From assembly GCA_030605515.1 (NCBI GenBank), contig JAUWIE010000063.1, positions 1 to 35,504 of the forward strand: a stretch of 35,504 bases of DNA, given 5' to 3'. Under the pieces are notes generated by a model, which was not told where the DNA came from, did no database searches, and saw only the letters and a program-made list of their open reading frames with translations. The stretch's first letter is position 1. Every line of letters begins with the position of its first letter. The position numbers and the translations under genes are program-made. This document shows positions 12,104 through 32,831 of this stretch, one piece after another. The DNA is from Thermoplasmatota archaeon. Lineage in GTDB: Archaea > Thermoplasmatota > E2 > DHVEG-1.

Positions 12104-12124
12104 ATAATATTTGGTGATAAAAAT

Positions 12125-13282
12125 ATGATACAGTTAAGTAAAGGAGCAGATCGAATATATGGAGAAGCAGCATTTGAAGTACTAGCAAAAGCTCAGGAAT
12201 TAGAACGAAAGGGAAAAAGCATTCTTCATTTTGAAATCGGTGAGCCTGATATGGAAACACCGGATAACATTGCTAAAGCAGGGATAAAGGCAATACAGGA
12301 TAAAAAAACACATTATGTGCCATCAATTGGATTATTGGAGCTTAGAAAATCAGTGCAGGATGAAATAGAGAAAACCCGTGGGTATAGACCTGACCTAGAA
12401 CAGGTTGTTATCACCCCAGGTCTTAAACCAGGTATATTTTTTTCTATGCTAGCAATAATTAATCAAGGTGATGAGGTTATTTATCAGGATCCAGGGTATC
12501 CAACATATGGATCAGTAACTTCTTTTATTGGTGGAAAAAGTATTCCTATCCCTCTCCTGGAAGAAAACGAGTTCCGTATGAACCCTGATGATATAAAAGA
12601 TAAAATCACTGGGAAAACAAAGCTTATCATCATAAACTCTCCTCAGAATCCAACTGGATCAGTTATGACAAAATCTGAGTTGGAGGATATAGCCATGCTT
12701 GCTGAAGAACATGATATTTATATTGTATCAGATGAGATTTATTCAAAGATGACATATGATACAAATCATTATACTCCAACTAGTAGAGATGAAGCAAAAA
12801 AAAGATCTGTGCTTTTGGATGGATTCTCTAAGTATTATGCTATGACTGGCTGGCGATTGGGATATATGATAGCTCCAAAAAAGATGGCTGAGCGGCTTCA
12901 GGATTTTCTAGTAAGTGCTGTGTCATGTACCGCTGCTTTTACACAATGGGCTGGTGTAGAAGCATTAACAGGTAATCAAAGTTTTATTTCTGAGATGATG
13001 ACAAGATTCAAAGAAAAAAGAGATACAATAGTAAAAGGTCTGAACACTATTCCTGGTTTTAAATGCCTCTTTCCAAAAGGAGCATTTTATGCTTTTCCAA
13101 ATATCAAAGAAACAGGGATGAATTCCCAAGAATGCGCTGATCATCTACTCTACAAAGCAGGTGTAGCCGCTTTACCAGGAACTGCTTTTGGTCCTTATGG
13201 TGAAGGATACCTAAGGTTTTCTTATGCAACAACTCTTGAAAACATTGACATCGCTATAAATAAAATTAAAGAATCATTTTAA
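12125..13282 (+). CDS. Class I/II PLP-dependent aminotransferase (aspartate/aromatic aminotransferase-like)
   Basis: 385 aa containing INSPQNPTG and the PLP-lysine region (GFSKYYAMTGWRLGY). Confidence 0.88.
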   Translation: MIQLSKGADRIYGEAAFEVLAKAQELERKGKSILHFEIGEPDMETPDNIAKAGIKAIQDKKTHYVPSIGLLELRKSVQDEIEKTRGYRPDLEQVVITPGLKPGIFFSMLAIINQGDEVIYQDPGYPTYGSVTSFIGGKSIPIPLLEENEFRMNPDDIKDKITGKTKLIIINSPQNPTGSVMTKSELEDIAMLAEEHDIYIVSDEIYSKMTYDTNHYTPTSRDEAKKRSVLLDGFSKYYAMTGWRLGYMIAPKKMAERLQDFLVSAVSCTAAFTQWAGVEALTGNQSFISEMMTRFKEKRDTIVKGLNTIPGFKCLFPKGAFYAFPNIKETGMNSQECADHLLYKAGVAALPGTAFGPYGEGYLRFSYATTLENIDIAINKIKESF

Positions 13283-13915: not shown

Positions 13916-14458
13916 ATGAGTGGTATATTAATGAGCATAGTAGATTTGACTTCTATGGGGAAGTCTCAAACTGAGCTGAGAAAAGAAATCAATGGGCAGT
14001 TATCAAAACTGCAAGATGAAATCTCAGATTACTGTTTTCAATGTGCAAAATGTACCGCTGGTTGTGAGGCTCATAAACTGCTTGAACTTGAGCCTCATAA
14101 AATGGTTGCTCTTTTGAAACGTGGATTGATCGACGAGATGGTAAACTCTGATATCATCTGGACTTGTATGAGCTGTTTTAAATGCCGTGAGCGGTGTCCG
14201 CAACGCGTAGCTCCTGTTGAGATTTTATTTGCCTTGAAAAACATGGCTGTTGTCAGCGGTAAGCAGATTCCTGGGAAATATACAGCAATGTTACAATCGA
14301 TTCTTTCTATTGGCCTAATCCAAGATGTGCAAGAGGTTACCACTCGAGATAATAAAACAATGAAACGAGATGAACTAGGTCTTCCTTCTCTTTCAAAACC
14401 ATGTGATCCCGCAAAGTTTCAGGTAGGATTAACGAAAATAGCAGTTGAAAAAGTATAG
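13916..14458 (+). CDS. hdrC: Heterodisulfide reductase subunit C-like (two [4Fe-4S] motifs)
   Basis: 180 aa with CFQCAKCTAGC and CMSCFKCRERCP separated by about 35 aa. It sits directly upstream of hdrB. Confidence 0.85.
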   Translation: MSGILMSIVDLTSMGKSQTELRKEINGQLSKLQDEISDYCFQCAKCTAGCEAHKLLELEPHKMVALLKRGLIDEMVNSDIIWTCMSCFKCRERCPQRVAPVEILFALKNMAVVSGKQIPGKYTAMLQSILSIGLIQDVQEVTTRDNKTMKRDELGLPSLSKPCDPAKFQVGLTKIAVEKV

Positions 14459-14467
14459 AGGTCGATT

Positions 14468-15337
14468 ATGAAAAAGAAATATGCATTGTACCCAGGTTGT
14501 CTGATGCCAACAGAACAGTATGCATATGAACTCTCTATACGGGAGAGTTTGCCGTTGTTAGATATTGAACTGGTGGATATCGACGGTTTTTCTTGTTGCG
14601 GTGAACCAATGAAAAGTGTGAATCGGTTACTTACATTGTATCTCTCAGCGCGTAACCTTGCTCTTGCTGAGAAACACAAGCTTGATTTATTTATTCCCTG
14701 TGCAATGTGTCATCTTGCATTGAGTGAATGCAGACACATACTAGGTAATAATCCAGAGATGAAAAAAAGAATTAATGGAATGCTTGCCTCTGAAGAGTTG
14801 ACCTATAAGGGCACGGGTGAAATTGTTCATACGGTTGATTTGTTACATGACCTTGTTGGTGTTGAGACAATTAAACAACGAGTTAAGAAACCAATGAAAG
14901 GGATAAAGCTTGCCACACATTATGGCTGTCATTTAATCCGTCCGACTGAAATCGGGCGTCCAGTGGATTCTGAGCATCCTATGAAGATGGAAGCGATTCT
15001 TGAGGCATTGGAAGCTGAAACTGTTGATTACCCGGAGAAACTGGATTGTTGTGGTGGTATCCTGCAGATCAATCTCCCTGAATCAGCTTTGACGAAGACA
15101 GGGCAGAAACTGAAAGCAGTTCAGGAGCACGGGTTTGACGGTTTTGTTGATGTATGTCCATGGTGTCATAAAATGTTTGACTCGCGGCAGAGTAAAGCTG
15201 GTGAAACGGTTGCAGCGAAGCTGGATGTCCCGGTGTTTTATTTGACACAGTTACTTGGTTTAGCGCTTGGTGTTAAGAAGGAAAAACTTGGTTTGGAGTT
15301 GAATTTGAGTCCAGTGGATAAACTAGAGTTTGGATAG
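14468..15337 (+). CDS. hdrB: Heterodisulfide reductase subunit B-like (two CCG domains)
   Basis: 289 aa with two cysteine-rich CCG motifs: ...GFSCCGEP...CAMCH and ...LDCCGG...CPWCH. Confidence 0.87.
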   Translation: MKKKYALYPGCLMPTEQYAYELSIRESLPLLDIELVDIDGFSCCGEPMKSVNRLLTLYLSARNLALAEKHKLDLFIPCAMCHLALSECRHILGNNPEMKKRINGMLASEELTYKGTGEIVHTVDLLHDLVGVETIKQRVKKPMKGIKLATHYGCHLIRPTEIGRPVDSEHPMKMEAILEALEAETVDYPEKLDCCGGILQINLPESALTKTGQKLKAVQEHGFDGFVDVCPWCHKMFDSRQSKAGETVAAKLDVPVFYLTQLLGLALGVKKEKLGLELNLSPVDKLEFG

Positions 15338-15356
15338 TGTTAGTGGAGTATAGTGT

Positions 15357-17315
15357 ATGCGTCGGATTGGTGTGTTTGTCTGCCATTGCGGTATCAATAT
15401 TGCCCAGAATGTTGATGTTGAAGCGTTAACAAAGTATGCTAGTAAGCTTGATGATGTAGTAGTAAGTAAGCAGTACAAGTATATGTGTTCCGATGTTGGC
15501 GCTACTCTTATTAAGGACTCGATTAAAGAACATCAGCTTGATGGTGTTGTAGTTGCATGTTGTTCCCCGCGGATGCATGAGCATACATTCCGTGAGGTTG
15601 TCAACGATGGTGGGGTGAACCCATATCGTTTAGAGATTGCTAATATACGTGAGCAGTGTTCTTGGGTACATGGCGATCGTGGTAAGTCGACGGAGAAAGC
15701 AAAGTTTCTTGTAAGAAGTGCGGTGGCTAAGGCGAAATTGCTTGAGCCGCTGGAAACGTCGACGCTTGAGGTGAACCCCGATGCATTGGTAATTGGTGGT
15801 GGCATCGCAGGTATCCAGGCATCGCTTGATCTAGCGAATGATGGTTTTAAAGTGTATCTTGTTGAGCGTGAGCCTAGTATCGGTGGGCGGATGTCGCAGC
15901 TTGATAAAACGTTTCCTACGCTTGATTGTTCGTCGTGTATTTTGACTCCGAAGATGATGGAAGTTGGGAATCATCCAAATATTGATCTCTTAACATATGT
16001 TGAGGTTACAGGTGTTGAGGGCAGTATTGGAAATTATACTGTTAAGGTACGAAAGAAACCACGGTATGTTGATGTGGATAAATGTACTGGTTGTGGTGAT
16101 TGTGCTGCAGCCTGCCGGCTTAAGGGAAGGATTTCTAGTGAGTTTGACATGGGCATGGGTAAACGTGGTGCAGCGTATATGCCATTCCCGCAGGCAGTGC
16201 CTTTGAAATATACGATTGATGCAGAGCATTGTCTCTTTCTAACACGTGGTAAATGTGGTGACAAGCCTGCCTGCAGGGAAGCATGTGTGCAGAAGGCGAT
16301 TGATTTTGATCAAAAAGAAGAACTAGTTGATTTAAAAGTCGGCGCGATTGTGGTAACAACTGGTTATGACCTCTTGAATCCTGAAGATCTGTACGAGTAT
16401 GGATATGCAGTTTCACCTGATGTAATTACCACCCTTGAACTAGAACGACTCATTAGTTCATCTGGACCGACAAAAGGTGAAATCTTACGTCCATCCGATC
16501 AGCAGAAACCCAAGAGTGTAACTTTTATTCTTTGTGTTGGCTCCCGTGATGAAACCCAGTGTACCTGGTGCTGTCGTATTGGATGTATGAGTGCGTTGAA
16601 ACATGTGTATCTTTTGCGCGAAAAACTAGGTGACGATGTCGAAATCAACTTATGCTATACCGATATTCGATCCTACGGCAAAGGATATGAGGAGTTTTAT
16701 CGCAAGGTGCGCGGGTTAAAAACAAACATGTTCCGTGGAATACCCTCTGAAGTACAAAATATGGGAGATCATCAGAAAATTGATATTTTTGATACAACAA
16801 CAAATAAACTCTTTGAAATTAAAACAGATATGGTAGTACTAGTTCCTGCATTGGTGCCACGTTCTGATGCAGCTGATTTTGCAAGGTTACTTCATTTGAC
16901 ACAGAGCGGCGACGGGTTCTTTTTGGAGGCTCATCCGAAGTTGCGGCCGATGGATACGTTTGTGAATGGTATTTTTATTGCGGGATGCTGTCAAGGACCA
17001 AAAGATATCCAGGATACAGTATCACAGGCAAGTGGTGCTGCTTCACGTGTGGCAACTATTCTTTCTAAAAAAGAATTAGAAATAGATCCGCTAATAGCTG
17101 CGGTTGATGAAGAGGCATGTACAGGTTGCGGTATCTGTGTCGATGTATGTCCGTACGAAGCACGTGTCCTAAATGAGAAAGCCAAGATTGCTGAGGTGAA
17201 CGAGGCGTTGTGTACTGGTTGTGGTGCGTGTATTGCTGCGTGTCCGAGTAACGCGTCTATTCATAAGAACTTTACAAAAAAACAGTTCTTGAACATGGTT
17301 GATGACATTTTATGA
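15357..17315 (+). CDS. hdrA: Heterodisulfide reductase subunit A (canonical single-module architecture)
   Basis: 652 aa with the N-terminal Cys domain ([13 protein letters not shown]...CCSPRMHE) and FAD fold (VIGGGIAGIQASLDLA). It also has the inserted ferredoxin (CTGCGDCAAAC...), CVGSRD...CC, and a C-terminal 2x[4Fe-4S] (CTGCGICVDVCP, CTGCGACIAACP). Confidence 0.9.
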   Translation: MRRIGVFVCHCGINIAQNVDVEALTKYASKLDDVVVSKQYKYMCSDVGATLIKDSIKEHQLDGVVVACCSPRMHEHTFREVVNDGGVNPYRLEIANIREQCSWVHGDRGKSTEKAKFLVRSAVAKAKLLEPLETSTLEVNPDALVIGGGIAGIQASLDLANDGFKVYLVEREPSIGGRMSQLDKTFPTLDCSSCILTPKMMEVGNHPNIDLLTYVEVTGVEGSIGNYTVKVRKKPRYVDVDKCTGCGDCAAACRLKGRISSEFDMGMGKRGAAYMPFPQAVPLKYTIDAEHCLFLTRGKCGDKPACREACVQKAIDFDQKEELVDLKVGAIVVTTGYDLLNPEDLYEYGYAVSPDVITTLELERLISSSGPTKGEILRPSDQQKPKSVTFILCVGSRDETQCTWCCRIGCMSALKHVYLLREKLGDDVEINLCYTDIRSYGKGYEEFYRKVRGLKTNMFRGIPSEVQNMGDHQKIDIFDTTTNKLFEIKTDMVVLVPALVPRSDAADFARLLHLTQSGDGFFLEAHPKLRPMDTFVNGIFIAGCCQGPKDIQDTVSQASGAASRVATILSKKELEIDPLIAAVDEEACTGCGICVDVCPYEARVLNEKAKIAEVNEALCTGCGACIAACPSNASIHKNFTKKQFLNMVDDIL

Positions 17316-17325
17316 GAGTTAGATT

Positions 17326-18210
17326 ATGAAAGATGATAAGACTATCTCGATGGCTGCTGCTGAAAAACATGGGTCAGTGTTAGTCATCGGTGGTGGTATC
17401 TCTGGTATTCAATCTGCACTTGATCTTGCTAATTCAGGATTTAAAGTGTATGTGCTAGAAGAAAAACCAGCTATTGGTGGCGTGATGTCGCAGCTTGATA
17501 AAACGTTCCCTACGAATGATTGTTCTATGTGTATTATGTCGCCTAAGCTTGTTGATGTAGGCCGTCATCCAAATATCGAGCTTATTACCTTCTCAGAATT
17601 AAAAGATATCACAGGCAAAGTAGGCAATTTCAAAGTTAAAATACTTAAAAAACCACGTTATGTGGATGGAGAGAAATGTACCGGTTGTGGAGTATGCATA
17701 GAAAATTGTCCGGTATTGTTCCAGCCGCAGATCCCTGAAAAACCGAAAGAACCGTCTCAGGTGAGAGACCAGGTGTATATCGATGAACTGATTTCCAAGT
17801 ATTCCTATTATGAAGCACCGTTGATTCAAATTATGCTGGAAGTAAACAAGAAATATAGATATCTCCCAAGGGATGTACTAGAATATCTCTCTTTTAAACT
17901 TGATACCGCGCTTAGCACCATTTATAGAGTGGCTACTTTCTATAAGACATTTAGTCTTGAACCTCTAGGCAAGTACCATATCAAGATATGCCTAGGTACC
18001 GCCTGTCATGTTAGAGGTGCCAGAAATATTGTTGATAAAGTTAAAGACGCAATAGATGCTGCTGAAGAAGGTCTCTTCTCGCTAGAAACTGTTAACTGCC
18101 TTGGTGCCTGTGCTCTTGGCCCTATTATGATGGTGAACGAAGAGGTTCATGGGCACATGACCGTTGATAAAGTCGATGAGATCATAACGTCTTTGGAGGG
18201 AATTAAATGA
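17326..18210 (+). CDS. Fusion of an N-terminal HdrA FAD-domain fragment (aa 1-130) with a NuoE/HoxE-type [2Fe-2S] thioredoxin-like domain (aa ~150-294)
   Basis: The N-terminus ([50 protein letters not shown]...[14 protein letters not shown]) stops right after the first Cys motif of the HdrA inserted ferredoxin. The C-terminus carries the NuoE Cys pattern (ICLGTAC ... NCLGAC). Confidence 0.85.
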
Positions 18211-20075
18211 AGAAGTTGTCAAACCCCAAAGAATTGGAGAAACTGAGAAAGACCATTCAAAACAGAAGGGACCCTAATAAACCAGTAGTTACCATCTGCG
18301 GTGGAACAGGATGTCAAGCTTCCGGATGTGAACATATAATCGAAACGTTCAAAAAGGAGATAATAAAGCAGAGTCTTCAGGAGAAGATCGATGTTCGAAT
18401 CACTGGATGTCATGGATTCTGTGAAAAAGGTCCACTCGTTGTCATATACCCAAGTAAAATTTTTTATCCAATGGTGAAATCAAAGGATGTTTCTAGAATC
18501 ATCTCGGAAACTGTGGTAAATAATAAAGTCATTGAGGAATTGCTTTATGTCGACCCTAGCTCAGGTGAAAGAATAACCTATGAGGATGATATACCATTCT
18601 ATAAAAAACAAACTAGAACAATCTTCGGTAGTAACGGCAAAATTGATCCAAAAAACATCGAGGACTATATTGCCATAAGCGGATACTCAGCTCTTGAAAA
18701 AGTTCTCCCTAGCATGAAACCCCAAGATGTTATAGATGAAGTAAAAAAATCAGGTCTTAGAGGTCGAGGTGGTGGCGGTTTCCGTACAGGTCAAAAATGG
18801 GAATCCTGCAGCAAAGCAAAGGGCAAACAGAAGTATATTATATGTAACGCTGACGAAGGCGATCCCGGTGCATACATGGACCGGAGCATCCTTGAAGGCA
18901 ATTCACACAGCGTGATTGAAGGTATGATCCTCGGTGCTTTTGCAATAGATTCTAATCATGGTTATATCTACGTAAGGGCTGAATACCCACTTGCGGTTAA
19001 GCATTTTTCAATCGCCTTAAATCAGGCAAGAAAACTTGGACTTTTAGGGAAAAATATACTGAACTCCGGTTTTGATTTCGATATCAAAATCTATCAAGGC
19101 GGGGGTGCATTTGTATGCGGCGAGTCATCAGCCCTCATTCAATCCATCGAGGGGAACGTCGGTGAGCCAAGAGCAAAACATATTCATGCAACTGAACGTG
19201 GTCTATGGGACTGCCCCACAGTAATTAACAACGTTGAAACCTGGGCTAATATTCCATTAATTATTAACAAAGGAGCTAAATGGTATGCTAGCATTGGAAC
19301 AGAAAAAAGCAAGGGAACAAAGATATTCTCTCTCGTTGGAAAAATAAATAACACGGGTCTGGTAGAAGTACCAATGGGTATGACCATCAAAGAAATCGTG
19401 TTTGATATCGGGGGTGGAATCCCTAATGACAAAGAGTTTAAAGCAATACAGACAGGAGGGCCATCTGGTGGATGCATACCGAGATCCCTTATGGACATGC
19501 CTATTGATTTTGACGAGTTGAAGCGCGCAGGTTCCATGATGGGTTCCGGTGGCATGATTGTGATGGATGAAGACACATGCATGGTTGATGTCGCCCGGTA
19601 CTTTATGGAATTCAATCTTGACGAATCATGCGGTAAATGTTCATCATGCAGAGAAGGCAACGCTCGGATGTTAGAAATATTAGAGGATATCTGCGTGGGG
19701 AAAGGCAATGAGAACTCTATACCATTGCTTGAAGAATTATCTGAATACATCAAGGAGACATCGCTTTGTGGACTTGGAAAAACTGCTCCCAATCCAGTGC
19801 TGACGACTTTGAAATATTTTAAAGATGAGTATCTCTCCCATATACAAAAAAAAGAATGCCCAGCTAAGGTATGTAAGCCTCTAATATTCTATGAGATAAA
19901 CTCGGAGGATTGTACCGGTTGCGGTATGTGTGCTAAAAAATGTCCAGTAAATGCTATAACTGGTGAAAAAAAGAAACCACACACCATAGACAAAGACATA
20001 TGCACGAAATGTGGGACATGTATAGCAACGTGCAAATTCAACGCCATACAAGTTAAAACAGGAGAGAAAAAGTGA
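18207..20075 (+). CDS. NuoF/HydB/HoxF-type NAD(H)- and FMN-binding subunit, with an N-terminal [2Fe-2S] thioredoxin-like domain and a C-terminal 2x[4Fe-4S] ferredoxin
   Basis: 622 aa with [16 protein letters not shown] (FMN site), [14 protein letters not shown] (NADH site), [12 protein letters not shown] and [12 protein letters not shown] (N3-type cluster). The C-terminus has [12 protein letters not shown] and [11 protein letters not shown]. The start overlaps the upstream stop by 4 nt (ATGA). Confidence 0.88.
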
Positions 20076-23000
20076 ATACAGTTACAATAGAGATCAACGG
20101 ATCTAAGTATGAAACTGAAAAAGGAAAAACTGTTCTTGAAGTTGCTAATGAGAACAACATCGAAATACCTACTCTGTGCTATCACAAGGCTCTGAATCCC
20201 TATGGAGCCTGTAGACTATGTGTAGTGGAAATACTAAAAGACGGTTGGTCTGAGCTTACTACTTCATGCACGCTACCAGTAAATGATGGGTTGAGGGTAC
20301 AGACTGATTCTGAAAAAGTGGTTAAAAGCCGAAAGATGACAATTGAACTATTACTAGCACGTTGCCCAGAGGAAGAAGTATTACTCGAACTTGCAGAAGA
20401 ATATGGTATCGAGAAACCAAGATTCAAGAAAAAAGATGACAACTGCATTTTGTGCGGGCTTTGCGTAAGAATGTGTGAACGTATGGGGCCAAAAGCAATT
20501 AGTTTCATAAACCGAGGTTCTGATCGCAAGGTTAAACCACCATTTGAAGAACATTCTGAGGTATGTCAAACCTGTGGTGCTTGTGCATTTATTTGCCCTA
20601 CCAGTGCAATTAATCTTGAGGAAATCACAAAAAACAAACCAATCCCTATTCTCGATGAATTTGATATGGGTCTAAGAAAACGATCAGTGATGCATATTTC
20701 ATATCCTCAGGCCGTTCCAAACTGGCCGGTTATTGATTCTGAGCATTGCATCCATTTACAGACAGATCAATGCGGTATCTGCAAGGACTCTTGCGAAGCA
20801 GATGCTATTGACTATGACCAAAAGGAGCAAGAACTTGAGATTGATGTTGGCTCTGTTATTTTATCCCCAGGTTTTGAGGAATATACTCTGCCAAAGGGGG
20901 ATAGCTATGGATACCGTGTGTATCCAAATGTGTTGACAAGTATCGAGTTTGAACGTATTCTCTCTGCTTCTGGTCCTTATCAAGGGCATATTAAACGTAT
21001 TTCTGATGGTAAATCTCCTAAGAAAATTGCATGGTTGCAGTGCGTCGGCTCTCGTGACGAAAGCTGCGATAGAAAATATTGTTCTTCAGTTTGTTGTATG
21101 TATGCTACGAAAGAAGCGGTGATTGCAAAGGAGCATCAGCCAGATGTTGAATCCCATATTTATTTCATGGATATGCGTTCGTTTGGTAAGGATTTTGATA
21201 AATATTTTGCCCGAGCTCAAGATGAATATGGAGTAGTATACCGGCGGTGTCGCATTCCAAGGGTGGAGCAGGATAGAACAACGAAGAATCTCATCATTCG
21301 TTATGTTGACGAAGATGGAAGCCTTAAGAAAGAAACATATGATATGGTCGTGTTGTCTGTTGGACTACAGCCATGTAAAGCGCTGGGGAATCTGAGCAAG
21401 ATTCTTGATGTTAATCTAAATGAATATGGTTTTGTTGAGACTGATCCGTTCTCACCAGTTAATACCTCACAGAAAGGTATCTATGCATCAGGGACAGTTA
21501 CAGAGCCAAAGGATATTCCTGAGAGTGTTACGCAGGCTTCTGCAGCTGCAGCAGAGGCAGCAAAGAATATTTTTGAGGTTCGTGGGACAGAGATTACTGA
21601 AAAAGTGTATCCTAAGGAGAAGCAGGTAAGTGCTGAGTTCCCACGTATCGGTGTGTTTGTCTGTCATTGTGGAATCAACATTGCTGGTGTTGTTGATGTA
21701 AAACAGGTAGTTGAATATGCAAAGACGTTGCCGTACGTTGTGCATGCTGATGACAGCATCTTCACGTGTTCTCAGGACTCTCAGGAGATGATTAAGGAGA
21801 AGATACAGGAGTTTAATCTGAATCGTGTGGTAATTGCTTCTTGTACACCTCGGACGCATGAGCCATTGTTTCAGGATACCTTACGTGAGGCAGGTTTGAA
21901 TCCTCATCTTTTTGAGATGGCAAATATACGTGATCAGAATTCATGGGTGCATAAGAACGTTCCTCGGAGTGCAACGCAGAAGGCGATTGATGCAGTGAGG
22001 ATGGCAGTGTCAAAATCAACAGATTTGTATCCGGTTCATCATCTGAAGATCCCAGTTGTTCATAATGCACTGGTGATTGGTGGTGGTATCTCCGGTATGC
22101 AGTCTGCATTGTCTATTGCAGATCAAGGATATGAAGTGTTTCTTGTTGAGCGGGAACCCGTGCTTGGTGGTCATCTGAGAGATATCTATCTTGGTGTTAA
22201 CGGTGAGCAGCCGCAGGAACTATTGAAGGAGACTGTTGAAAAGGTGAATGGTCATTCGAGAATTCAGGTGTTTACGGGTACAACAGTTGAAGCTGTCTCA
22301 GGTTATGTTGGTAATTTTAAGACAAAGCTAACGTCAGAAGATAAAAAGGTACCTGCAGAGATAGAGCATGGTATTATTGTAGTGGCTTCTGGAGGGTTAC
22401 CGTATGAGCCAGTTGAGTATCAGTATGCAAAAAGTGATGAAATTGTTACGCAGACGGAGTTTGAAAAAGACTTGTTTGATGGTAAGTCTTATCTGAAGAA
22501 ACTCCAAGAAGTCGTGATGATCCAATGTGTCGGCTCACGGAATGATGAGCATCCGTATTGCAGTCGGGTGTGTTGTTCTCAGGCGTTGAAGAATGCGTTA
22601 AGGTTCAAAGAGATTAATCCAGATGCTACCGTGTATATCTTGTATCGAGATATTCGTACGTATGGTTTCCGTGAAGATGTTTTGTATCAGAAGGCACGGA
22701 AAAAAGGGATTTTGTTTGTGCGATATGACGAGAATGAAGAACCTGAGGTTAATATTGATAAGGGAAATATTACGGTTAAAACCTTTGAGCGGGTACTTCG
22801 TAGGCCGCTTCATCTACATCCGGATAAACTAGTGTTAAGCACAGGGATTATCCCAGCGGATAACATGGTATTAGCCAAACAGTTGAAGATTCCCTTAAAT
22901 GCTGATAATTTTTATGCTGAAGCACATGTGAAACTGCGCCCTGTTGATTTTTCAGCCGATGGCATCTTCTTGTGTGGTCTTGCACATTCACCGCGTTTTA

Positions 23001-23311
23001 TCGAGGAGTCGATATTGCAGGCGAAGGCTACTAGCGCCCGAGCAGCGACGATACTGTCAAAGGAATATTTGGAGACAAAGGGAAATATTGCCTATGTGAC
23101 CTCGCGGAACTGCGCGGGATGTAAACTATGTATTGAAGCATGTCCATATGATGCAATCACGTTTGATGAAGAGAAGAAAATTGTTGAGGTGAATGAAATT
23201 TTATGCCAGGGCTGTGGTGCATGTTCGGCAGTATGTCCAAGTGGTGTATCGCAGCAGAATACGTTTACGAAACGGCAGATTCTGTCGATGGTTGATGCTT
23301 GTTTGGAGTGA
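20072..23311 (+). CDS. Giant fusion: NuoG/HydA-N-terminal-like [2Fe-2S]+2x[4Fe-4S] module, then the C-terminal remainder of a split HdrA FAD domain, then a second complete HdrA-like module
   Basis: 1079 aa. Residues 1-185 (LCYH..GACRLC..SC; [11 protein letters not shown]; [12 protein letters not shown]) resemble the NuoG N-terminus. From about aa 195 ([22 protein letters not shown]...[19 protein letters not shown]) the protein aligns with HdrA exactly where ORF 17326 stops. From about nt 21640 comes a new HdrA N-domain ([14 protein letters not shown]), FAD fold ([16 protein letters not shown]) and C-terminal ferredoxin. The GTG start overlaps the upstream stop by 4 nt. Confidence 0.85.
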
Positions 23312-23318
23312 TAAAAAA

Positions 23319-23768
23319 ATGGTAGAAGAAAAAAAGGAGTCTAAAAAGAACGAATTTGAACCAAAAATTGTCGGTTTTCTCTGCAACTGGTGTAGCTATG
23401 CCGGTGCAGATCTTGCTGGGACAAGCCGTATTCAATATCCACCGAATGTTCGAATTATCCGTGTGATGTGTTCAGGGTCTGTGGATTCTGTATATATACT
23501 GCGTGCGTTGCTTGAGGGTGCTGATGGTGTGTTTGTTGGTGGCTGTCATCCTGGTGATTGTCATTATCTTGATGGGAATTATAAGGCTCGACGGCGGATG
23601 GTTTTACTTCGTGATATTTTGGATACGTTGGGTTTGGAACAAGAAAGGGTGTGGATTCGTTGGATTTCAGCATCCGAGGGGCAGCAGTTTGCAGAGACAA
23701 TGAGAGAGATGACTGAGGCGATTAGAAAGCTTGGTCCCACTCCTATTACAAAACAATGGAATATATGA
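23319..23768 (+). CDS. mvhD: MvhD-like (methyl-viologen-reducing hydrogenase delta subunit family) [2Fe-2S] electron-transfer protein
   Basis: 149 aa counted from the internal ATG at 23319, with the typical IVGFLCNWCSYAGADLAG...RVMCSG...GCHPGDCHY. The tracked start at 23193 would overlap 119 nt of the upstream gene in another frame, so I reject it. Confidence 0.88.
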   Translation: MVEEKKESKKNEFEPKIVGFLCNWCSYAGADLAGTSRIQYPPNVRIIRVMCSGSVDSVYILRALLEGADGVFVGGCHPGDCHYLDGNYKARRRMVLLRDILDTLGLEQERVWIRWISASEGQQFAETMREMTEAIRKLGPTPITKQWNI

Positions 23769-23783
23769 GGTATGGTGTAAAGT

Positions 23784-24902
23784 ATGACTGATAAAATCTT
23801 AAAAGTTAAAAATGGGGATGTTGCCGGTTCAGTTAACGAGTTTTTGAAAGAACTGTTGAAGTCAGGCAAGGTTCATGCGTTGTTGGTTATGCAGGAGGTT
23901 CCGTCGAAAAAGATATCGTTTCCTGTGTTAATTTCTGATCCGGGTCAGTTAAATGCAAATGTTTTTGCTCCTGTTTTGCCTGTGTCAACAGCATCGATTG
24001 TTTCAAAGATAACGAAGTTTCAAGCTGCAGAGAAGCTGGTTGGCGTAGTGATGCATCCATGTCAGATTCGTGCGCTAGTTGAGCTGGTAAAATTGAATCA
24101 AGCCAGCTTGGAGAATATCGTTATTATTGGAGTGGATTGTTTGGGTACCTTTCCATTGAATATCTACACTGATTTCCCTGAAAAGAAGATACCTACACAG
24201 TTTATACTTGATGCATTTAAAAACAAAAGTAAGGAGGCTGAGAAGTATCTGCGTTCGGCGTGTCTTGTATGTAAAGATCCAGTTCCCGTGAATGCTGATA
24301 TTGTCCTTGGACTGTATGGTGCTGATATAGGTAAAGAAGTTTTTGTTGAGGTTTGTACTGATGCTGGTAAAAAACTGCTTGATGGTATAAAGCTTGATAG
24401 TAAGGATGTGAAAGGTCGTGAGAATGCAGTAAAAGTTGTCCGTGAAGATAAGGCAAATAAGCGTGATGAGTTTGTTAAAAAGAAAAGTTCATTGAAGGGC
24501 ATTAAGGTGTTGTCTGAGTTTTTTGACAAGTGTGTAAATTGTCATAACTGTATGAAGGCGTGTCCGATTTGTTATTGTAAAGAATGTTTGTTTGATTCAT
24601 CCGTGTTCGATGCTGAGGCGTATAAGTTCCTTCGAAAGGCAGAGAGCAAGGGTTTGTTTAAGATGCCGAATGATTCCATTCTTTTCCATCTGGGACGGAT
24701 GAATCATATGATTCTTTCATGTGTAGAGTGTGGGCTGTGCGAGCAGGCATGTCCAAGTGATATTCTATTGATGGATGTGTTTATCCCTGCTGCTGAAAGT
24801 GCGCAGAAAGAGTTTGATTATCATCCAGGAAAAGATCCTGAGGAGAAGATCCCAATGGTTGTCTATCAAGAGGATGAGTATGTGGAAGTAGGGGAAGCAT
24901 AA
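23784..24902 (+). CDS. FrhB/FdhB-family-like (F420/flavin-binding beta-subunit-type) protein with two C-terminal [4Fe-4S] motifs
   Basis: 372 aa. The N-terminal half has an FrhB-like pattern (VHALLV...GVVMHPCQIRALVEL...IIGVDCLGTF). The C-terminal half has CVNCHNCMKACPICYC and CVECGLCEQACP. The assignment rests on motif resemblance only. Confidence 0.55.
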   Translation: MTDKILKVKNGDVAGSVNEFLKELLKSGKVHALLVMQEVPSKKISFPVLISDPGQLNANVFAPVLPVSTASIVSKITKFQAAEKLVGVVMHPCQIRALVELVKLNQASLENIVIIGVDCLGTFPLNIYTDFPEKKIPTQFILDAFKNKSKEAEKYLRSACLVCKDPVPVNADIVLGLYGADIGKEVFVEVCTDAGKKLLDGIKLDSKDVKGRENAVKVVREDKANKRDEFVKKKSSLKGIKVLSEFFDKCVNCHNCMKACPICYCKECLFDSSVFDAEAYKFLRKAESKGLFKMPNDSILFHLGRMNHMILSCVECGLCEQACPSDILLMDVFIPAAESAQKEFDYHPGKDPEEKIPMVVYQEDEYVEVGEA

Positions 24903-24903
24903 T

Positions 24904-25563
24904 ATGGATGTGATTGACTCCCGTAAGGTCGACCAAAATTTCAAGTTTCAGATAGCTAGTGAAGAAGGTGGAGAGGGAATCTTGAAATGTTTTGCATGTG
25001 GGTCATGTACAGCGCGGTGTCCTGAGATGGATGTGAAACCTGAATGGAATCCTCGTGTAATTATCCGGAAGGCGTTGCTGGGTTTAAAAGAGGAGGTGTT
25101 GTCAAGTGAGTTTATTTGGATTTGCAGTGCGCATTACCGCTGTCTGGAAAAATGTCCCCAGGGCGTCAATGTCAAAGAGGTCATGAATGCGGTTCGTAAT
25201 GCACGACTACTTGAAGAACAAACTGAGGATGCAACAGGGAAAATTGCAAAGAAGGTGCTTGATCTTGATTTCAAATATAAGATTGTTACTGATGAGTCTG
25301 GGAAAGACTTGTATGAATGTTTTTCATGTGGGACATGCACAGCAGGTTGTCCAGAGCGAGAGCTTGATCCTTTATATTCACCGCGGAAAGTTATTAAAAA
25401 TGTGTTGCTGGGGATGAAGGATTCCGTGTTTTCTAATAAGTTTGTTGAGATTTGTTCAACACATCATCGGTGTTTTACACAGTGTCCGCAAGGCGTTGAG
25501 ATTCCAAAGTTGATGAATGCGATAAAAAAAATTGCAGAAAGAGAAGGATACAGGAGACCGTAG
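24904..25563 (+). CDS. Internally duplicated HdrC-like iron-sulfur protein (two tandem HdrC modules)
   Basis: 219 aa with two colinear repeats. Repeat 1 is CFACGSCTARCPE...NPRVIIRKALLG...WICSAHYRCLEKCPQGV. Repeat 2 is CFSCGTCTAGCPE...SPRKVIKNVLLG...EICSTHHRCFTQCPQGV. Confidence 0.8.
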   Translation: MDVIDSRKVDQNFKFQIASEEGGEGILKCFACGSCTARCPEMDVKPEWNPRVIIRKALLGLKEEVLSSEFIWICSAHYRCLEKCPQGVNVKEVMNAVRNARLLEEQTEDATGKIAKKVLDLDFKYKIVTDESGKDLYECFSCGTCTAGCPERELDPLYSPRKVIKNVLLGMKDSVFSNKFVEICSTHHRCFTQCPQGVEIPKLMNAIKKIAEREGYRRP

Positions 25564-25570
25564 AATAGTT

Positions 25571-28500
25571 ATGGCGAAGAAATCTGAAATGGTTGGAGCA
25601 GTTGCTGTTGTCGGCGGTGGGATTGCTGGTGTGCAGTCATCACTTGATCTTGCAGATATGGGTTTTAAGGTTTATCTGTTGGAGAAGTCACCGGCGATTG
25701 GTGGGGTGATGGCTCAGCTGGATAAAACGTTTCCAACAAATGACTGTTCAATGTGTATATTATCCCCGAAGCTTGTTGATTGCGTACGTCATGCAAATAT
25801 CAAGTTATTTACAAATACGGAAGTGAAGAAAATTGAAGGGAAACCTGGAAACTTTGTTGTCAAGGCATTAAAGAAACCCAGGTATGTTGACTTGGAGAAA
25901 TGTACGTCATGTGGTGATTGTGAAGAGGTTTGTCCAATTAAACTTCCGAACACGTTTGAACAGGGACTGTCTGATCGGAAAGCAATCTATAAACTGTATC
26001 CTCAGGCGATTCCAAATGCATATGTAATTGATAAAGAGGGTGACGGGGAGCATCGTGGCTGCGTTGATTGTATGAAATGTGTGGATGCATGTAAGGTTGG
26101 TGCGATTAACCATGATGAGAAACCAGAGAACCTTAAGTTTGATGTCGGTGCGGTGATTGTTGCAGCTGGTTCTAAGCCGTTTAACCCAATAATTAAACCT
26201 GAGTTTGGGTACAAACAATATAAGAATGTGATGACAAGCATAGAGTTTGAACGAGTACTTTCAGCATCTGGCCCCTTTGAAGGAAAGGTTATACGTCCAA
26301 GTGATAAGAAGCCGCCAAAGAAAATCGCGTGGGTTCATTGCGTGGGATCTCGTGATAAATCTGTAGAACATGAATATTGCTCTTCGATGTGTTGTATGTA
26401 TACAGCAAAAGAGGCAGTAATTGCAAAAGAGCACGATGCAGATGTTGAGCCGACCGTGTTCTATATTGATGTTCGTTCGTTTGGTAAGGATTTTGATAAA
26501 TATATTGATCGGGCAAAAAAAGAGCATGGGTTACGATACGTTAGATCAAGGATTTCTGAGATAATGGAGGATCCAAAGACAGAGGATCTTGTTATAAGAT
26601 ATGAGGATGACTCAGGGGAGTTAAAAGAGGAGATGTTTAATCTTGTTGTGTTATCTGTTGGTCTTTGTATTGCTGAAGAACAGCGTGATGAGTTGATTGA
26701 GCAGTTAGGTTTTGAAGTAAATGAGTTTGGTTTTGTTCAAACATGTCCTGATGACCCGGTCGTATTGCGTCCTGGAGTTTTTGTCGCTGGTTCATTTCTG
26801 GAGCCGCAGGCGATCCCTGAGAGTGTGATGCAGGCTTCTGCTGCAGCGGCGAATGCTGCTGCATTGTTGAAGGATGCTAGAGGGACCCTAGTTAAAGAGA
26901 AGCAGTATCCAGCGGAGCGTGATGTTTCTGGTGAGAAACCACGGGTTGGTGTGTTTGTCTGTCATTGCGGCATTAACATAGGTGGATATGTTGATGTCCC
27001 AGCAGTTGTTAAATTTGCAGAATCTCTTGATGACGTAGTATATGCTGAGGCAAATTTGTATACGTGTTCTGAGGATACACAGAAGAGGATAGTTGATGCA
27101 ATTAAGAAACATAATTTGAATAGGATTATAGTAGCAGCATGTACACCACGAACACATGAGCCGTTGTTTCAGAAGAGTCTTCGTGAAGCAGGACTTAATC
27201 CTCATCTTTTTGAGATGACAAATATCCGTGAACAATGCTCATGGGTTCATATGGATAAGTTCAAGGATGCTACGGAGAAGGCGAAACAGCTGGTTGCAAT
27301 GACTGTTGCAAAAACCCGTTTTCTACAGCCGATTCAGGAAGCAGAAATTCCAGTTATACAAAAAGCATTGGTTATAGGTGGTGGGATTGCTGGTATGACC
27401 GCTGCTTTGTCACTTGCGGATCAGGGTTATGAAACAGTACTCGTTGAAAAAGAACCAGTACTTGGTGGCTATCTAAACAAAGTGTATTATACAGTTGATG
27501 GTGTCGACATCGATCAGCTACTGAAGAAGACGGTGGAGAAAGTTCAGAACCATAATCTCATAAAAGTGTATACAGGTTCATCACTGGAGAGTCTGAAAGG
27601 GTATGTTGGGAGTTATGAGTCTGAGATTAAAACATCAAAAGGAACAGTAAAGTTTAGCCATGGTGTGGTTGTTGTTACAGTTGGCGCTAGTGAATATAAA
27701 CCAAATTCGTATCTTTACGGTAAAAATCTGCAGGTGCTGACACAGTTGGAATTGGAAAAAAAACTGAGTGACTGCCAGCAGGATGATATCCATGATGGCG
27801 ATACGTTTGTGATGATTCAGTGTGTTGAGTCACGAGATGAAAAAAGACCTTATTGCAGCCGTATCTGTTGCATGCAAGCAGTGAAAAATGCGATCAGAAT
27901 TAAAGAATTAAGCCCGAAGGCTGAAGTTTTTGTGTTGTATCGTGACTTAATGACATATGGGTTTAAAGAGAAATTCTATAAGGATGCCCGGATGAAGGGT
28001 GTGATGTTTCTACAGTATGATGCAGAAAAAAAACCTATAGTTGATACAAAAGATGGGTTGATGGTTAAGTTTTTTGAGCCGATGCTTCAAAAAAAGTTGG
28101 AGATACCAACAGATACGCTCGTGCTTTCTACTGGTTTGCAGCCTAATCTTGATAACCTAGTTATTGCGCAGATGTTGAAGGTACCGATGAATGATGATGG
28201 GTTCTTTTTAGAGGCACATGTGAAACTACGACCTGTTGATTTCTCCACTCGTGGGGTGTTTGTCGCAGGAAACTGTCATACACCAAAGTTTATTTCTGAG
28301 TCGATCTATCAGGCACAGGCAGCTGCAGCACGTGCGGCGACAATTCTTGCGCAGCCGAAGCTTACAGCAGAGCCAAATATTGCAGTTGTTGATGAAGATC
28401 TTTGTTGTGGCTGTAAGACATGTATTGCAGTATGTCCATATAACGCAATTGACTTGACAGAAGATATAAAAAATGGTAATGTTTCAAACATAAATGAGGG

Positions 28501-28609
28501 GTTGTGTCAGGGCTGTGGAACATGTGTAAGCGCGTGTCCATCTAGTGCGATTCAGCAACGTGGATTTAAGGATAAACAAATTCTCCCTATTCTTGATGAA
28601 ATAGTCTAA
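25571..28609 (+). CDS. Tandem HdrA-HdrA fusion: module 1 lacks the N-terminal Cys domain, and module 2 has that domain but no inserted ferredoxin
   Basis: 1012 aa counted from the ATG at 25571; the tracked TTG at 25532 overlaps the upstream gene. Module 1 shows VVGGGIAGVQSSLDLA...CTSCGDCEEVCP...CVDCMKCVDAC...CVGSRD..YCSSMCC. Module 2 starts about nt 26935 with [14 protein letters not shown]...VIGGGIAGMTAALSLA...CVESRD..YCSRICC...CCGCKTCIAVCP, CQGCGTCVSACP. Confidence 0.87.
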   Translation: MAKKSEMVGAVAVVGGGIAGVQSSLDLADMGFKVYLLEKSPAIGGVMAQLDKTFPTNDCSMCILSPKLVDCVRHANIKLFTNTEVKKIEGKPGNFVVKALKKPRYVDLEKCTSCGDCEEVCPIKLPNTFEQGLSDRKAIYKLYPQAIPNAYVIDKEGDGEHRGCVDCMKCVDACKVGAINHDEKPENLKFDVGAVIVAAGSKPFNPIIKPEFGYKQYKNVMTSIEFERVLSASGPFEGKVIRPSDKKPPKKIAWVHCVGSRDKSVEHEYCSSMCCMYTAKEAVIAKEHDADVEPTVFYIDVRSFGKDFDKYIDRAKKEHGLRYVRSRISEIMEDPKTEDLVIRYEDDSGELKEEMFNLVVLSVGLCIAEEQRDELIEQLGFEVNEFGFVQTCPDDPVVLRPGVFVAGSFLEPQAIPESVMQASAAAANAAALLKDARGTLVKEKQYPAERDVSGEKPRVGVFVCHCGINIGGYVDVPAVVKFAESLDDVVYAEANLYTCSEDTQKRIVDAIKKHNLNRIIVAACTPRTHEPLFQKSLREAGLNPHLFEMTNIREQCSWVHMDKFKDATEKAKQLVAMTVAKTRFLQPIQEAEIPVIQKALVIGGGIAGMTAALSLADQGYETVLVEKEPVLGGYLNKVYYTVDGVDIDQLLKKTVEKVQNHNLIKVYTGSSLESLKGYVGSYESEIKTSKGTVKFSHGVVVVTVGASEYKPNSYLYGKNLQVLTQLELEKKLSDCQQDDIHDGDTFVMIQCVESRDEKRPYCSRICCMQAVKNAIRIKELSPKAEVFVLYRDLMTYGFKEKFYKDARMKGVMFLQYDAEKKPIVDTKDGLMVKFFEPMLQKKLEIPTDTLVLSTGLQPNLDNLVIAQMLKVPMNDDGFFLEAHVKLRPVDFSTRGVFVAGNCHTPKFISESIYQAQAAAARAATILAQPKLTAEPNIAVVDEDLCCGCKTCIAVCPYNAIDLTEDIKNGNVSNINEGLCQGCGTCVSACPSSAIQQRGFKDKQILPILDEIV

Positions 28610-29409: not shown

Positions 29410-30147
29410 TTAATCTGATTCAATACGAGGTGCAAGTAGATATGTTACATGTCCTTTTTTATCAGCGATATCAAATTCAACCCTTGTAGGGTTATCATTT
29501 CCAAGCATAATTGTTATCGGATCTTCACCTTTGATAGATTTTATCATATTGCTAAAGTAATCTATTGAAAACAGACTTCTACATTTACTTGATGCATTTA
29601 ATTCAATTAGTAAATCTTTAGGTAGCTTGAGATTCACGGTGTCTGTATCACCCTCAGCGCATAACTCAAAGTTATCCTTATTTATGGTGAGTGCTAAATG
29701 ATCAGAAACAGCTTCAGAGGCACGAACACCTTGATTAAGTTCAGATGCTCTGATAATTACCTTTCCAGGAAGGTCAAGATTTGGCATCTTAGGATCAGGC
29801 ATACCTGCAGTATCAATTAGTCCCATACGTCTCACAAGATTACCTATTTTTACAATTAATCGATTTGATTCATCATCAAACTCTAATGAAACTGTGTCAC
29901 CTGAGCTTGAAAGACGCATTATTCCACCTAATTTATTCATGTCAATTCCAAGTTCCATATTCTCTGCTTTGTATTCCTCAAAAGCCTTACTGTTCACATG
30001 TAAATCAACCATTGCTACATGTGCAGGATCAACTGCTCTTAAAGAAATACCTTTGTTAGTTATATTGAATTTTACTTCATTTACTAATGGAGATGTAACA
30101 TCGATTATACCTTTTAGTACTTCTGATTTTACCTTTGCATTAAACAT
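29410..30147 (-). CDS. pcn: PCNA, the DNA polymerase sliding clamp
   Basis: 245 aa with typical archaeal PCNA length and sequence character (ISLRAVDPAHVAMVDL...LGIDM..L...YLLAPRIE). Confidence 0.9.
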   Translation of the reverse strand: MFNAKVKSEVLKGIIDVTSPLVNEVKFNITNKGISLRAVDPAHVAMVDLHVNSKAFEEYKAENMELGIDMNKLGGIMRLSSSGDTVSLEFDDESNRLIVKIGNLVRRMGLIDTAGMPDPKMPNLDLPGKVIIRASELNQGVRASEAVSDHLALTINKDNFELCAEGDTDTVNLKLPKDLLIELNASSKCRSLFSIDYFSNMIKSIKGEDPITIMLGNDNPTRVEFDIADKKGHVTYLLAPRIESD

Positions 30148-32814: not shown

Positions 32815-32831
32815 TGTAACTACTCACGTTT
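32815..32831. repeat. IS66-family terminal inverted repeat (transposase 3' side)
   Basis: GTAACTACTCACGTTTT is the exact reverse complement of 34640-34656. Confidence 0.85.

Follow-up and report, generated by a model that had tools for sequence, protein, structure and literature searches.

The split hdrA genes and the module between them

Within a 35,504-nt stretch of a Thermoplasmatota archaeon genome (contig JAUWIE010000063.1 of assembly GCA_030605515.1; hereafter the window), ten genes on the forward strand span positions 13916-28609, with successive gaps of 9, 19, 10, -4, -4, 7, 15, 1, and 7 nt. Three of these genes encode the flavin adenine dinucleotide (FAD) domain of the flavoprotein HdrA in two separate pieces, along with a NADH/ferredoxin module of the Bfu (HydABC-like) type that lies at the cut. 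The open reading frames (ORFs), named here by their first position, are ORF 17326 (17326-18210; 294 residues), ORF 18207 (18207-20075; 622 residues), and ORF 20072 (20072-23311; 1079 residues, with a GTG start), and they comprise the following parts.

17326..17730, forward strand: N-terminal piece of the split HdrA FAD domain, residues 1-135 of ORF 17326 (matches residues 146-258 of HdrA 5ODC)
17779..18195, forward strand: NuoE/HydC/BfuC [2Fe-2S] domain, residues 152-290 of ORF 17326, in frame with the HdrA N-piece (PF01257, 6e-42)
18207..20075, forward strand: NuoF/HydB/BfuB (Pfam; full-length matches to bifurcating enzymes)
20072..20614, forward strand: NuoG-N/BfuA-like domain, residues 1-181 of ORF 20072 (residues 5-184 of 9MQX_A, 8e-43)
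20615..21556, forward strand: C-terminal piece of the split HdrA FAD domain, residues 182-495 of ORF 20072 (matches 5ODC 249-560; MAFFT alignment)
21614..23311, forward strand: second HdrA unit within ORF 20072, with the layout of the second half of ORF 25571

An initial annotation, made from the sequence alone, had proposed that ORF 17326 is HdrA-like up to the first Cys motif of the ferredoxin inserted in the FAD domain and then NuoE-like, that ORF 20072 starts as a NuoG-N-like iron-sulfur (FeS) module before HdrA resumes, and that a NuoF-type gene lies between them with 4-nt overlaps at both ends. Domain and structure-based searches bore out each of these statements. Specifically, residues 17-132 of ORF 17326 matched 5ODC 146-258 (E 1e-46), residues 182-495 of ORF 20072 took up the same protein at 249-560, and the overlaps at the 17326/18207 and 18207/20072 junctions read ATGA and GTGA. 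On the NCBIfam HdrA2 profile the two pieces fell at positions 136-258 and 251-560, whereas the unsplit paralogue in the same operon, ORF 25571, covered 136-562 in one chain. The ten-residue overlap between the HdrA pieces arises only because the last Cys motif of the BfuA-like domain resembles HdrA motif 1. Full-length homology to the solved HdrA FAD domain was reached only by both chains together; the break is complementary, and the two proteins are not independent, complete copies of the split domain. The conserved blocks that had been quoted across the HdrA paralogs also aligned as stated (MAFFT).

The cut lies within the inserted 2x[4Fe-4S] ferredoxin domain, directly after its first Cys motif. 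ORF 17326 carries the GGGISG (17389-17406) and DCSMC (17518-17532) motifs as well as inserted-ferredoxin Cys motif 1 (residues 118-129; 17677-17712), while ORF 20072 carries the EFDMG...YPQAVP block (20657-20719), Cys motif 2 (C-x7-C-x2-C-x3-C; residues 226-241; 20747-20794), CSSVCC-x4-K (21080-21112), and the C-terminal flavin motif. Both four-Cys motifs of the inserted ferredoxin are present, one per chain. In a 2x[4Fe-4S] ferredoxin fold, each cluster receives three Cys from one motif and one from the other, so that both clusters would bridge the two polypeptides if the pieces assemble, and in that event the FAD-proximal cluster would probably do so as well. K347 of ORF 20072 shares a column with Lys409 of 5ODC in the MAFFT alignment, and a Lys at flavin N5 (Lys409 in 5ODC; Lys280 in BamE of benzoyl-CoA reductase) has been named a hallmark of the bifurcating FAD.

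The possibility that ORF 20072 holds a first ferredoxin motif of its own was considered and ruled out, in that the two BfuA clusters require both motifs upstream of the HdrA piece, as do those of BamI and 9MQX_A. The BfuA-like part cannot supply the missing motif 1, because its two CxxCxxCxxxC motifs are its own.

Downstream of the C-piece, residues 515-1079 of ORF 20072 make up a second HdrA unit, composed of an N-domain-like cluster site (CHCGIN), a FAD domain (GGGISG, 22079-22096) that is complete but has no inserted ferredoxin, and a C-terminal 2x[4Fe-4S] ferredoxin. The split unit is thus not a canonical single HdrA but the opening module of a BamE/HdrL-type tandem HdrA, to which ORF 25571 is paralogous. 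In the second FAD domain, K840 (22559-22591) corresponds to the bifurcating-flavin Lys, and the same holds for ORF 25571. The second, non-bifurcating FAD of BamE has Gln768 in place of this Lys (bioRxiv 10.64898/2026.04.10.717634), and since K840 is a Lys, the sequence does not mark the second FAD of ORF 20072 as inactive.

The nested module resembles bifurcating enzymes

All three parts of the module had bifurcating enzymes as their closest structural relatives. The NuoE/HydC domain of ORF 17326 matched 7P5H_C (6e-38), and also 8A6T_C and 9N5U_C. ORF 18207 comprises an N-terminal thioredoxin-like [2Fe-2S] domain, the flavin mononucleotide (FMN)/NADH site, an SLBB domain, a [4Fe-4S] domain, and a C-terminal 2x[4Fe-4S] ferredoxin, with Pfam coverage at residues 19-101, 179-350, 461-545, and 562-615. 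Its alignments to 7T2R_B, 7Q4V_B, 9MQX_B, and 8A6T_B, all from bifurcating enzymes, were full-length and scored 772-796 bits (7T2R_B, 796); scores against bifurcating enzymes overall were 672-796 bits, but that against the non-bifurcating Nqo1 was only 367 bits, about half, and it keeps the extra N- and C-terminal FeS domains that set bifurcating HydB/BfuB apart from NuoF. Residues 4-181 of ORF 20072 correspond to the 247-residue BfuA/NuoG-N-like chain 9MQX_A, with one [2Fe-2S] motif and two CxxCxxCxxxC motifs but no His-ligated cluster. This is the pattern of type-2 BfuA, described as having a [2Fe-2S] and two [4Fe-4S] clusters and no His-ligated one (PMC9304861). The cofactor sets of BfuB, BfuC, and BfuA are thus all present at the sequence level. 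Domain and profile searches found no GltD-like domain in ORFs 17326, 20072, or 25571, and no NCBIfam model reached its cut-off on either fusion protein.

These features bear on whether the module could be a plain NADH input, that is, a NuoEFG-like and non-bifurcating unit that feeds HdrA, with HdrA alone bifurcating to ferredoxin and disulfide as proposed for FlxABCD-HdrABC. NADH-dependent Hdr systems with a non-bifurcating input have been proposed in sulfate reducers, and Poehlein et al. (2013) read the nuoEFG-mvhD-hdrA units of Desulfotignum phosphitoxidans in this manner, recognizing no split in them. However, the NuoF homologue here retains every extra FeS domain of HydB/BfuB, its best structural relatives all bifurcate, and the core with these extra FeS domains is reported to be invariant in Bfu enzymes (PMC9304861). 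We regard a plain NADH input as improbable.

Conservation across archaea and bacteria

The fusion of the HdrA N-piece to NuoE was present in at least 120 clusters at 90% identity, with 50-84% identity to the query and near-full coverage, and that of NuoG-N to the HdrA C-piece likewise in at least 120. A 201-residue query across the junction in ORF 20072 returned 35 representatives at E <= 1e-30 among 1.84 billion, about 20 of which span the whole junction. Among the matches listed, Cys motif 1 and the NuoE ligands (Cx4C...Cx3C) were each retained by all 120 homologues of ORF 17326; for ORF 20072, YPQAVP with at least four following Cys was found in 108 of 120, CC-x4-K in 107 of 120, exactly two upstream CxxCxxCxxxC motifs in 106 of 120, and a His-ligated cluster in none.

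The closest locus, in a Thermoplasmata metagenome-assembled genome (L001), had all ten genes at 71-93% protein identity; an exact-match search with ORF 17326 in the assembly collection gave no hit. The order in which HdrA-N fused to NuoE is followed by NuoF, by NuoG-N fused to HdrA-C and the second HdrA unit, and then by MvhD and an FrhB-like protein was shared by Thermoplasmatota (L001-L006), Altiarchaeales (L007), Cytophagales (L008), and Acidobacteria (L009), often with hdrC- and hdrB-like genes in front. Together with the Desulfobacterales loci described below, this places the gene order in five phylum-level groups. Going by protein names in the sources, it extends also to Aminicenantes, Planctomycetota, Dehalococcoidia, and others. 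The mvhD gene is kept after the split genes in other loci, and most loci, with either form of HdrA, have an FrhB-like gene behind it.

Such recurrence speaks to the possibility of an artefact, in which a single HdrA- or HdrL-like gene was frameshifted or misassembled, or in which the pieces are non-functional remnants of a decaying gene. One related locus offers a case of this kind: the apparent split of an HdrL-like gene in L014 (730-5846) proved to be an assembly gap with masked bases (X in the translation) and not a fission. Here, by contrast, at least 13 independent assemblies spanning several phyla share identical gene borders, each fusion partner is represented by more than 120 clusters at 90% identity, the E-values exclude chance, the cofactor ligands are conserved, and start and stop codons overlap by 4 nt as coupled genes typically do, which together leave the artefact with next to no credibility. 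The breakpoint and arrangement are real and conserved in many uncultured archaea and bacteria, and the neighbourhood comparison that the initial annotation had called for recovered the same split in other genomes of both domains.

Variants at the same breakpoint

In the Desulfobacterales/Deltaproteobacteria loci L010, L011, L036, and L041, the HdrA N-piece is a free protein of 128-167 residues that ends just after motif 1. In every case the next genes encode NuoE and NuoF separately, and the NuoG-N fusion to HdrA-C comes after them where the contig is long enough, as seen in L041 (9998-16123). In L022 the latter fusion is an ORF and the free N-piece appears only as a tblastn match. HdrA fission is more general than the fusion to NuoE, given that the Desulfobacterales N-piece is free-standing; the proposal that each HdrA piece is tied to a part of the NADH module holds for the window, then, but not throughout the family. 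In L045 (1791-9041), a free N-piece is directly followed by the NuoG-N and HdrA-C fusion, MvhD, and an FdhA-like protein, with neither NuoE nor NuoF; the FdhA-like protein, of the molybdo/tungstopterin kind (964 residues), has a NuoG-like N-terminus of its own.

A single canonical HdrA was cut at the same breakpoint in L081 (7576-12964). The gene order there is MvhD, P0027 (422 residues; HdrA 3-253 plus NuoE), NuoF, and P0210 (607 residues; NuoG-N plus HdrA 237-652), and a Prismane/hybrid-cluster-like protein is encoded after P0210.

Unsplit proteins, too, varied in what they hold at this site. Ordinary HdrA has 20-22 residues without Cys between motif 1 and YPQAVP, P0278 has 99 residues with 8 Cys (one ferredoxin), and P0255 has 212 residues with 16 Cys (a polyferredoxin). 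In P0246 the segment runs to 248 residues with 14 Cys and amounts to an entire BfuA-like domain, flanked in the same chain by the two HdrA halves. AlphaFold2, run twice on this protein, modelled the nested BfuA-like domain and the HdrA C-part at a predicted local distance difference test (pLDDT) score above 90; residues 1-145, the HdrA N-piece, scored below 50, with almost no depth in the MAFFT alignment there. As a sequence, P0246 is the best natural evidence suggesting that the N-piece of ORF 17326 and the C-piece of ORF 20072 belong to one domain. It adds support to the central claim of the initial annotation, which withstood all sequence tests: the FAD domain of one HdrA is divided between two polypeptides, both of which are also fused to part of a NuoE-NuoF-NuoG(N)/HydCBA-type module. 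Next to the P0246 gene are a second HdrA-like gene and a gene of the aldehyde:ferredoxin oxidoreductase (AOR) family accompanied by a small Fer4 subunit, in a layout that resembles that of Bam.

A nested module of another kind was found in HdrL-like proteins of 1483-1884 residues (L023, 10016-14467; L033, 5849-10825; L042, 9983-14437; L057, 9374-15028). These are tandem HdrAs in which a GltD/NfnB-like NAD(P)H module separates the YPQAVP block from Cys motif 2, about 25 residues beyond the split breakpoint and in the same ferredoxin domain. In L057 the HdrL-like protein also has MvhD fused at its C-terminus.

At the matched position, 64 of 80 loci had an unsplit HdrA, 54 of them longer than 800 residues (tandem) and nine of the other ten cut by a contig end. 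MvhD is usually next in these loci, often with an FrhB-like gene. The unsplit tandem-HdrA cassette is evidently the parent cassette, of which ORF 25571 is a copy.

Companion genes and comparison with known systems

The remaining genes of the operon are as follows.

13916..14458, forward strand: hdrC of the 2x[4Fe-4S] type, 180 residues, first gene of the cluster (Pfam Fer4_8/Fer4_17)
14468..15337, forward strand: hdrB, 289 residues, with two CCG domains forming the disulfide-reducing site (Pfam CCG, 7e-19, two stretches)
15357..17315, forward strand: canonical unsplit hdrA, 652 residues (5ODC_A residues 5-646 aligned, E 6e-214; K415 aligns with Lys409 of 5ODC)
23319..23768, forward strand: mvhD-type [2Fe-2S] adaptor, 149 residues (PF02662 FlpD, 1e-57)
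23784..24902, forward strand: FrhB/FdhB-like protein with 2x[4Fe-4S], 372 residues (PF04432, 3e-14, plus Fer4)
24904..25563, forward strand: duplicated HdrC-like FeS protein, 219 residues (TIGR03290, 5e-38, two stretches; Pfam)
25571..28609, forward strand: unsplit tandem HdrA, 1012 residues, collinear paralogue of the HdrA parts of ORF 17326 (N) and ORF 20072 (C) (MAFFT alignment)

The closest characterized system is the class II benzoyl-CoA reductase of Geobacter metallireducens, Bam[(BC)2DEFGHI]2 (bioRxiv 10.64898/2026.04.10.717634; Bam-Bfu in PMC9304861). There, BamGH (HydBC-type) confurcates NADH and reduced ferredoxin, and BamI hands the electrons to BamE, a fused HdrA dimer, at its C-terminal ferredoxin domain, from which they reach the MvhD-like BamF. 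The first FAD of BamE then bifurcates to BamD and, via the remaining clusters, to the subunits that hold tungsten. According to the authors, no complex with two bifurcation modules had previously been reported (bioRxiv 10.64898/2026.04.10.717634). The operon in the window shares with Bam a HydCBA/Bfu-type NADH plus ferredoxin module (BamGHI), a type-2 BfuA, a tandem HdrA (BamE), and an MvhD-type adaptor (BamF). In BamE only the first FAD bifurcates, and the two Bam bifurcation modules act in series, as those of the window would. In Bam, however, all subunits are separate, BamE is unsplit, and BamI contacts the C-terminal ferredoxin domain of BamE, whereas here the parts are covalently interlocked and HdrA is cut. 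Moreover, the operon encodes none of BamB (the benzoyl-CoA-reducing tungsten subunit, of the AOR type), BamC, or the HdrD-like BamD, the nearby AOR being 1AOR-like and not BamB-like, and has HdrB and HdrC in their place.

The closest described operon family is that of the HdrABC/HdrL-MvhD-FeS clusters of sulfate reducers, such as Desulfobacterium autotrophicum (PMC2702500) and Syntrophobacter fumaroxidans (Sfum_0819-0824; PMC5947623), which is known from genomes and proteomes only; no biochemical characterization of HdrL was found in the literature searched. As in these clusters, hdrABC is accompanied here by a large tandem-type HdrA with a built-in pyridine-nucleotide module, followed by MvhD and an FdhB/FrhB-like FeS protein, and the NAD(P)H module of the HdrL-like proteins recovered here is nested in the very inserted-ferredoxin domain that is split in the window. 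The two differ in that HdrL holds a GltD/NfnB-like module after YPQAVP, about 25 residues further on, in one polypeptide, while the window encodes a three-part Bfu unit and its host domain is cut in two.

With the Bfu family (HydABC, NiFe-HydABCSL, NfnABC, and Wor-Bfu 9MQX; PMC9304861) the module shares complete BfuB/BfuC cofactor sets and the type-2 BfuA pattern, and Bfu enzymes were the best PDB matches of all three parts. In none of the described Bfu types are BfuA and BfuC each joined to one half of a further flavoprotein; the sole link to HdrA named in the Bfu survey is Bam-Bfu, and 18 of its 57 clades are unassigned (PMC9304861). The HdrA FAD domain with its Lys, the proximal cluster, the inserted and C-terminal ferredoxins, MvhD, and HdrBC are held in common with the MvhAGD-HdrABC and Fdh-Hdr complexes (5ODC, 7BKB, 8RVU), and a canonical HdrA is encoded in the same operon (15357..17315). 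The canonical complexes, in contrast, contain a homodimer of single-chain HdrA, have a hydrogenase or formate dehydrogenase as donor, and leave the inserted ferredoxin free to reduce ferredoxin or polyferredoxin.

The split unit belongs with HdrA complexes that have built-in pyridine-nucleotide modules and with HydBC-HdrA coupling as in benzoyl-CoA reductase. The arrangement had been put forward as unfamiliar, and this stands for the split: full-text literature searches returned no description of a split HdrA fused to NuoE or NuoG, a result that leaves room for a mention in HdrA reviews. It does not stand for the joining of two bifurcation modules, which has a non-covalent precedent in the class II benzoyl-CoA reductase. 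As far as could be checked, then, the concept of joining both modules is precedented, and the split-and-nest topology, its breadth, and the evolutionary series are undescribed.

Proposed assembly and electron path

On balance, we favour a reading in which the region encodes a hybrid of two bifurcating machines, with one FAD domain made from two chains and the Bfu module locked onto its inserted-ferredoxin arm, as the domain comparisons suggest. In this Bfu-HdrA hybrid, the N-piece is fused to BfuC, the C-piece stands behind BfuA in its chain, and BfuB is encoded between them with translationally coupled overlaps. The two HdrA pieces would assemble into one FAD domain, such that the FAD, the FAD-proximal [4Fe-4S] cluster, and both inserted-ferredoxin clusters would be held by residues of both chains, and the Bfu module would thereby be fixed to the bifurcating FAD at its inserted-ferredoxin arm. 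MvhD, the FrhB/FdhB-like protein, and HdrBC would join to give one soluble complex, in which HydBC-type NADH plus ferredoxin (con/bi)furcation may run in series with HdrA-type bifurcation, with the high-potential branch reducing a disulfide at HdrB. Judging by the topology, the wiring would most likely connect the BfuB FMN with the BfuA clusters, these with the two inter-chain inserted-ferredoxin clusters, and these in turn with the HdrA FAD. Electrons could enter as NADH and reduced ferredoxin and leave to the disulfide and the MvhD/FrhB-like arm, or could enter from a donor at the MvhD/FrhB-like arm and leave to the disulfide plus NAD+ and ferredoxin. For class II benzoyl-CoA reductase, experiments have established that an MvhD adaptor couples a HydBC-type module in series to a fused HdrA dimer.

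The path used in that enzyme provides another way to wire the same parts. Here, BfuA would pass electrons to the C-terminal ferredoxin domain and MvhD and from there to the bifurcating FAD, the inserted-ferredoxin arm would be a free low-potential output, and the nesting site would be a mere surface loop. This is the route in the only solved HydBC-HdrA hybrid (I3 to E1/E2 to F1 to B-FAD), and both MvhD and the C-terminal ferredoxin domain are present and conserved in the loci studied here. However, the nested series of ferredoxin, polyferredoxin, and BfuA-like domain looks like an extension of the inserted-ferredoxin cluster chain, the linkers on both sides of the insertion are only about 12-20 residues long, and the NAD(P)H module of HdrL lies in this domain too. 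For these reasons wiring through the inserted ferredoxin is favoured; the Bam-type path is a serious rival that we consider less likely, though more likely than a plain NADH input.

Several observations nevertheless count against the Bfu-HdrA hybrid as proposed. BamI feeds the C-terminal ferredoxin domain and BamF and not the inserted ferredoxin, so the proposed wiring departs from the only solved precedent in its entry point. In canonical HdrA and in BamE, low-potential electrons leave by the inserted-ferredoxin arm, which makes the direction of flow ambiguous. The covalent tether on the NuoE side is not essential, because the fusion is absent in Desulfobacterales. Lastly, the split is not always coupled to a full Bfu module, as L045 lacks NuoE and NuoF.

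More tentatively, and as a possibility that we would place somewhat short of even, these systems could constitute a widespread, unstudied enzyme class, "Bfu-Hdr". In such enzymes, a HydBC-type site would be hard-wired into the HdrA ferredoxin arm via [4Fe-4S] clusters ligated by two polypeptides, so as to couple NADH, ferredoxin, disulfide, and a fourth partner (MvhD/FrhB-like) in a two-stage bifurcation with wiring unlike that of benzoyl-CoA reductase. Their origin would lie in stepwise FeS nesting followed by gene fission.

Implications for anaerobic metabolism

Electron bifurcation supplies anaerobes with very low-potential electrons at little energy cost. The loci described here indicate that double-bifurcation combinations are not confined to aromatic degraders, since Thermoplasmatota, Altiarchaeales, Desulfobacterota, Acidobacteria, and Bacteroidota encode a version whose parts are covalently interlocked. 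If assembled as proposed, the split unit would be a natural case of a flavoprotein domain, and probably of three FeS clusters too, built from two chains. The graded series at the breakpoint, from loop through ferredoxin, polyferredoxin, and BfuA-like domain to fission, appears to mark the HdrA inserted ferredoxin as a general docking port. The split unit is also a concrete starting point for finding out what the abundant tandem-HdrA/MvhD/FrhB-like cassettes of sediment microbes do. Its pieces are at present annotated as "NAD(P)H-dependent oxidoreductase subunit E", "(2Fe-2S)-binding protein", or "FAD-dependent oxidoreductase", and these names conceal the split unit from metabolic reconstructions.

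Surrounding genes and sequence features

An AOR gene (10271-12103) lies about 1.8 kb upstream of hdrC and 21 nt before a class I/II aminotransferase gene (region 10271-13282). We considered it as a possible member of the system, comparable to BamB or WOR in Bam-Bfu and Wor-Bfu. Its product matched 1AOR at 2.5e-135 and BamB 4Z3W at 7e-60, with the AOR of Wor-Bfu (9MQX_D) nearly as close as 1AOR, and in none of 82 related loci was the AOR gene syntenic with the hdr cluster. It was left out of the system because it is an ordinary AOR and not syntenic in related loci.

A scan of the window for sigma-70 promoters and terminators was uninformative: the host is an archaeon, and the counts did not exceed those expected from shuffled sequence. 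Long antisense ORFs occur inside the operon genes on the reverse strand at 19184-19792, 20200-20529, and 21488-21859. A 191-residue ORF from 23193 on the forward strand is merely mvhD extended upstream into the end of ORF 20072 (23193-23318), and the mvhD start is likely at 23319, as in L001.

On the reverse strand, downstream of the operon, are two further genes.

29410-30147, reverse strand: PCNA gene, which identifies the host as an archaeon
32824-34341, reverse strand: IS66-family transposase gene

The G+C fraction is 0.41-0.44 over the hdr/bfu operon (14000-28000 of the window) versus 0.29-0.35 in both flanks, a contrast that could reflect horizontal acquisition or merely the amino-acid composition of FeS flavoproteins.

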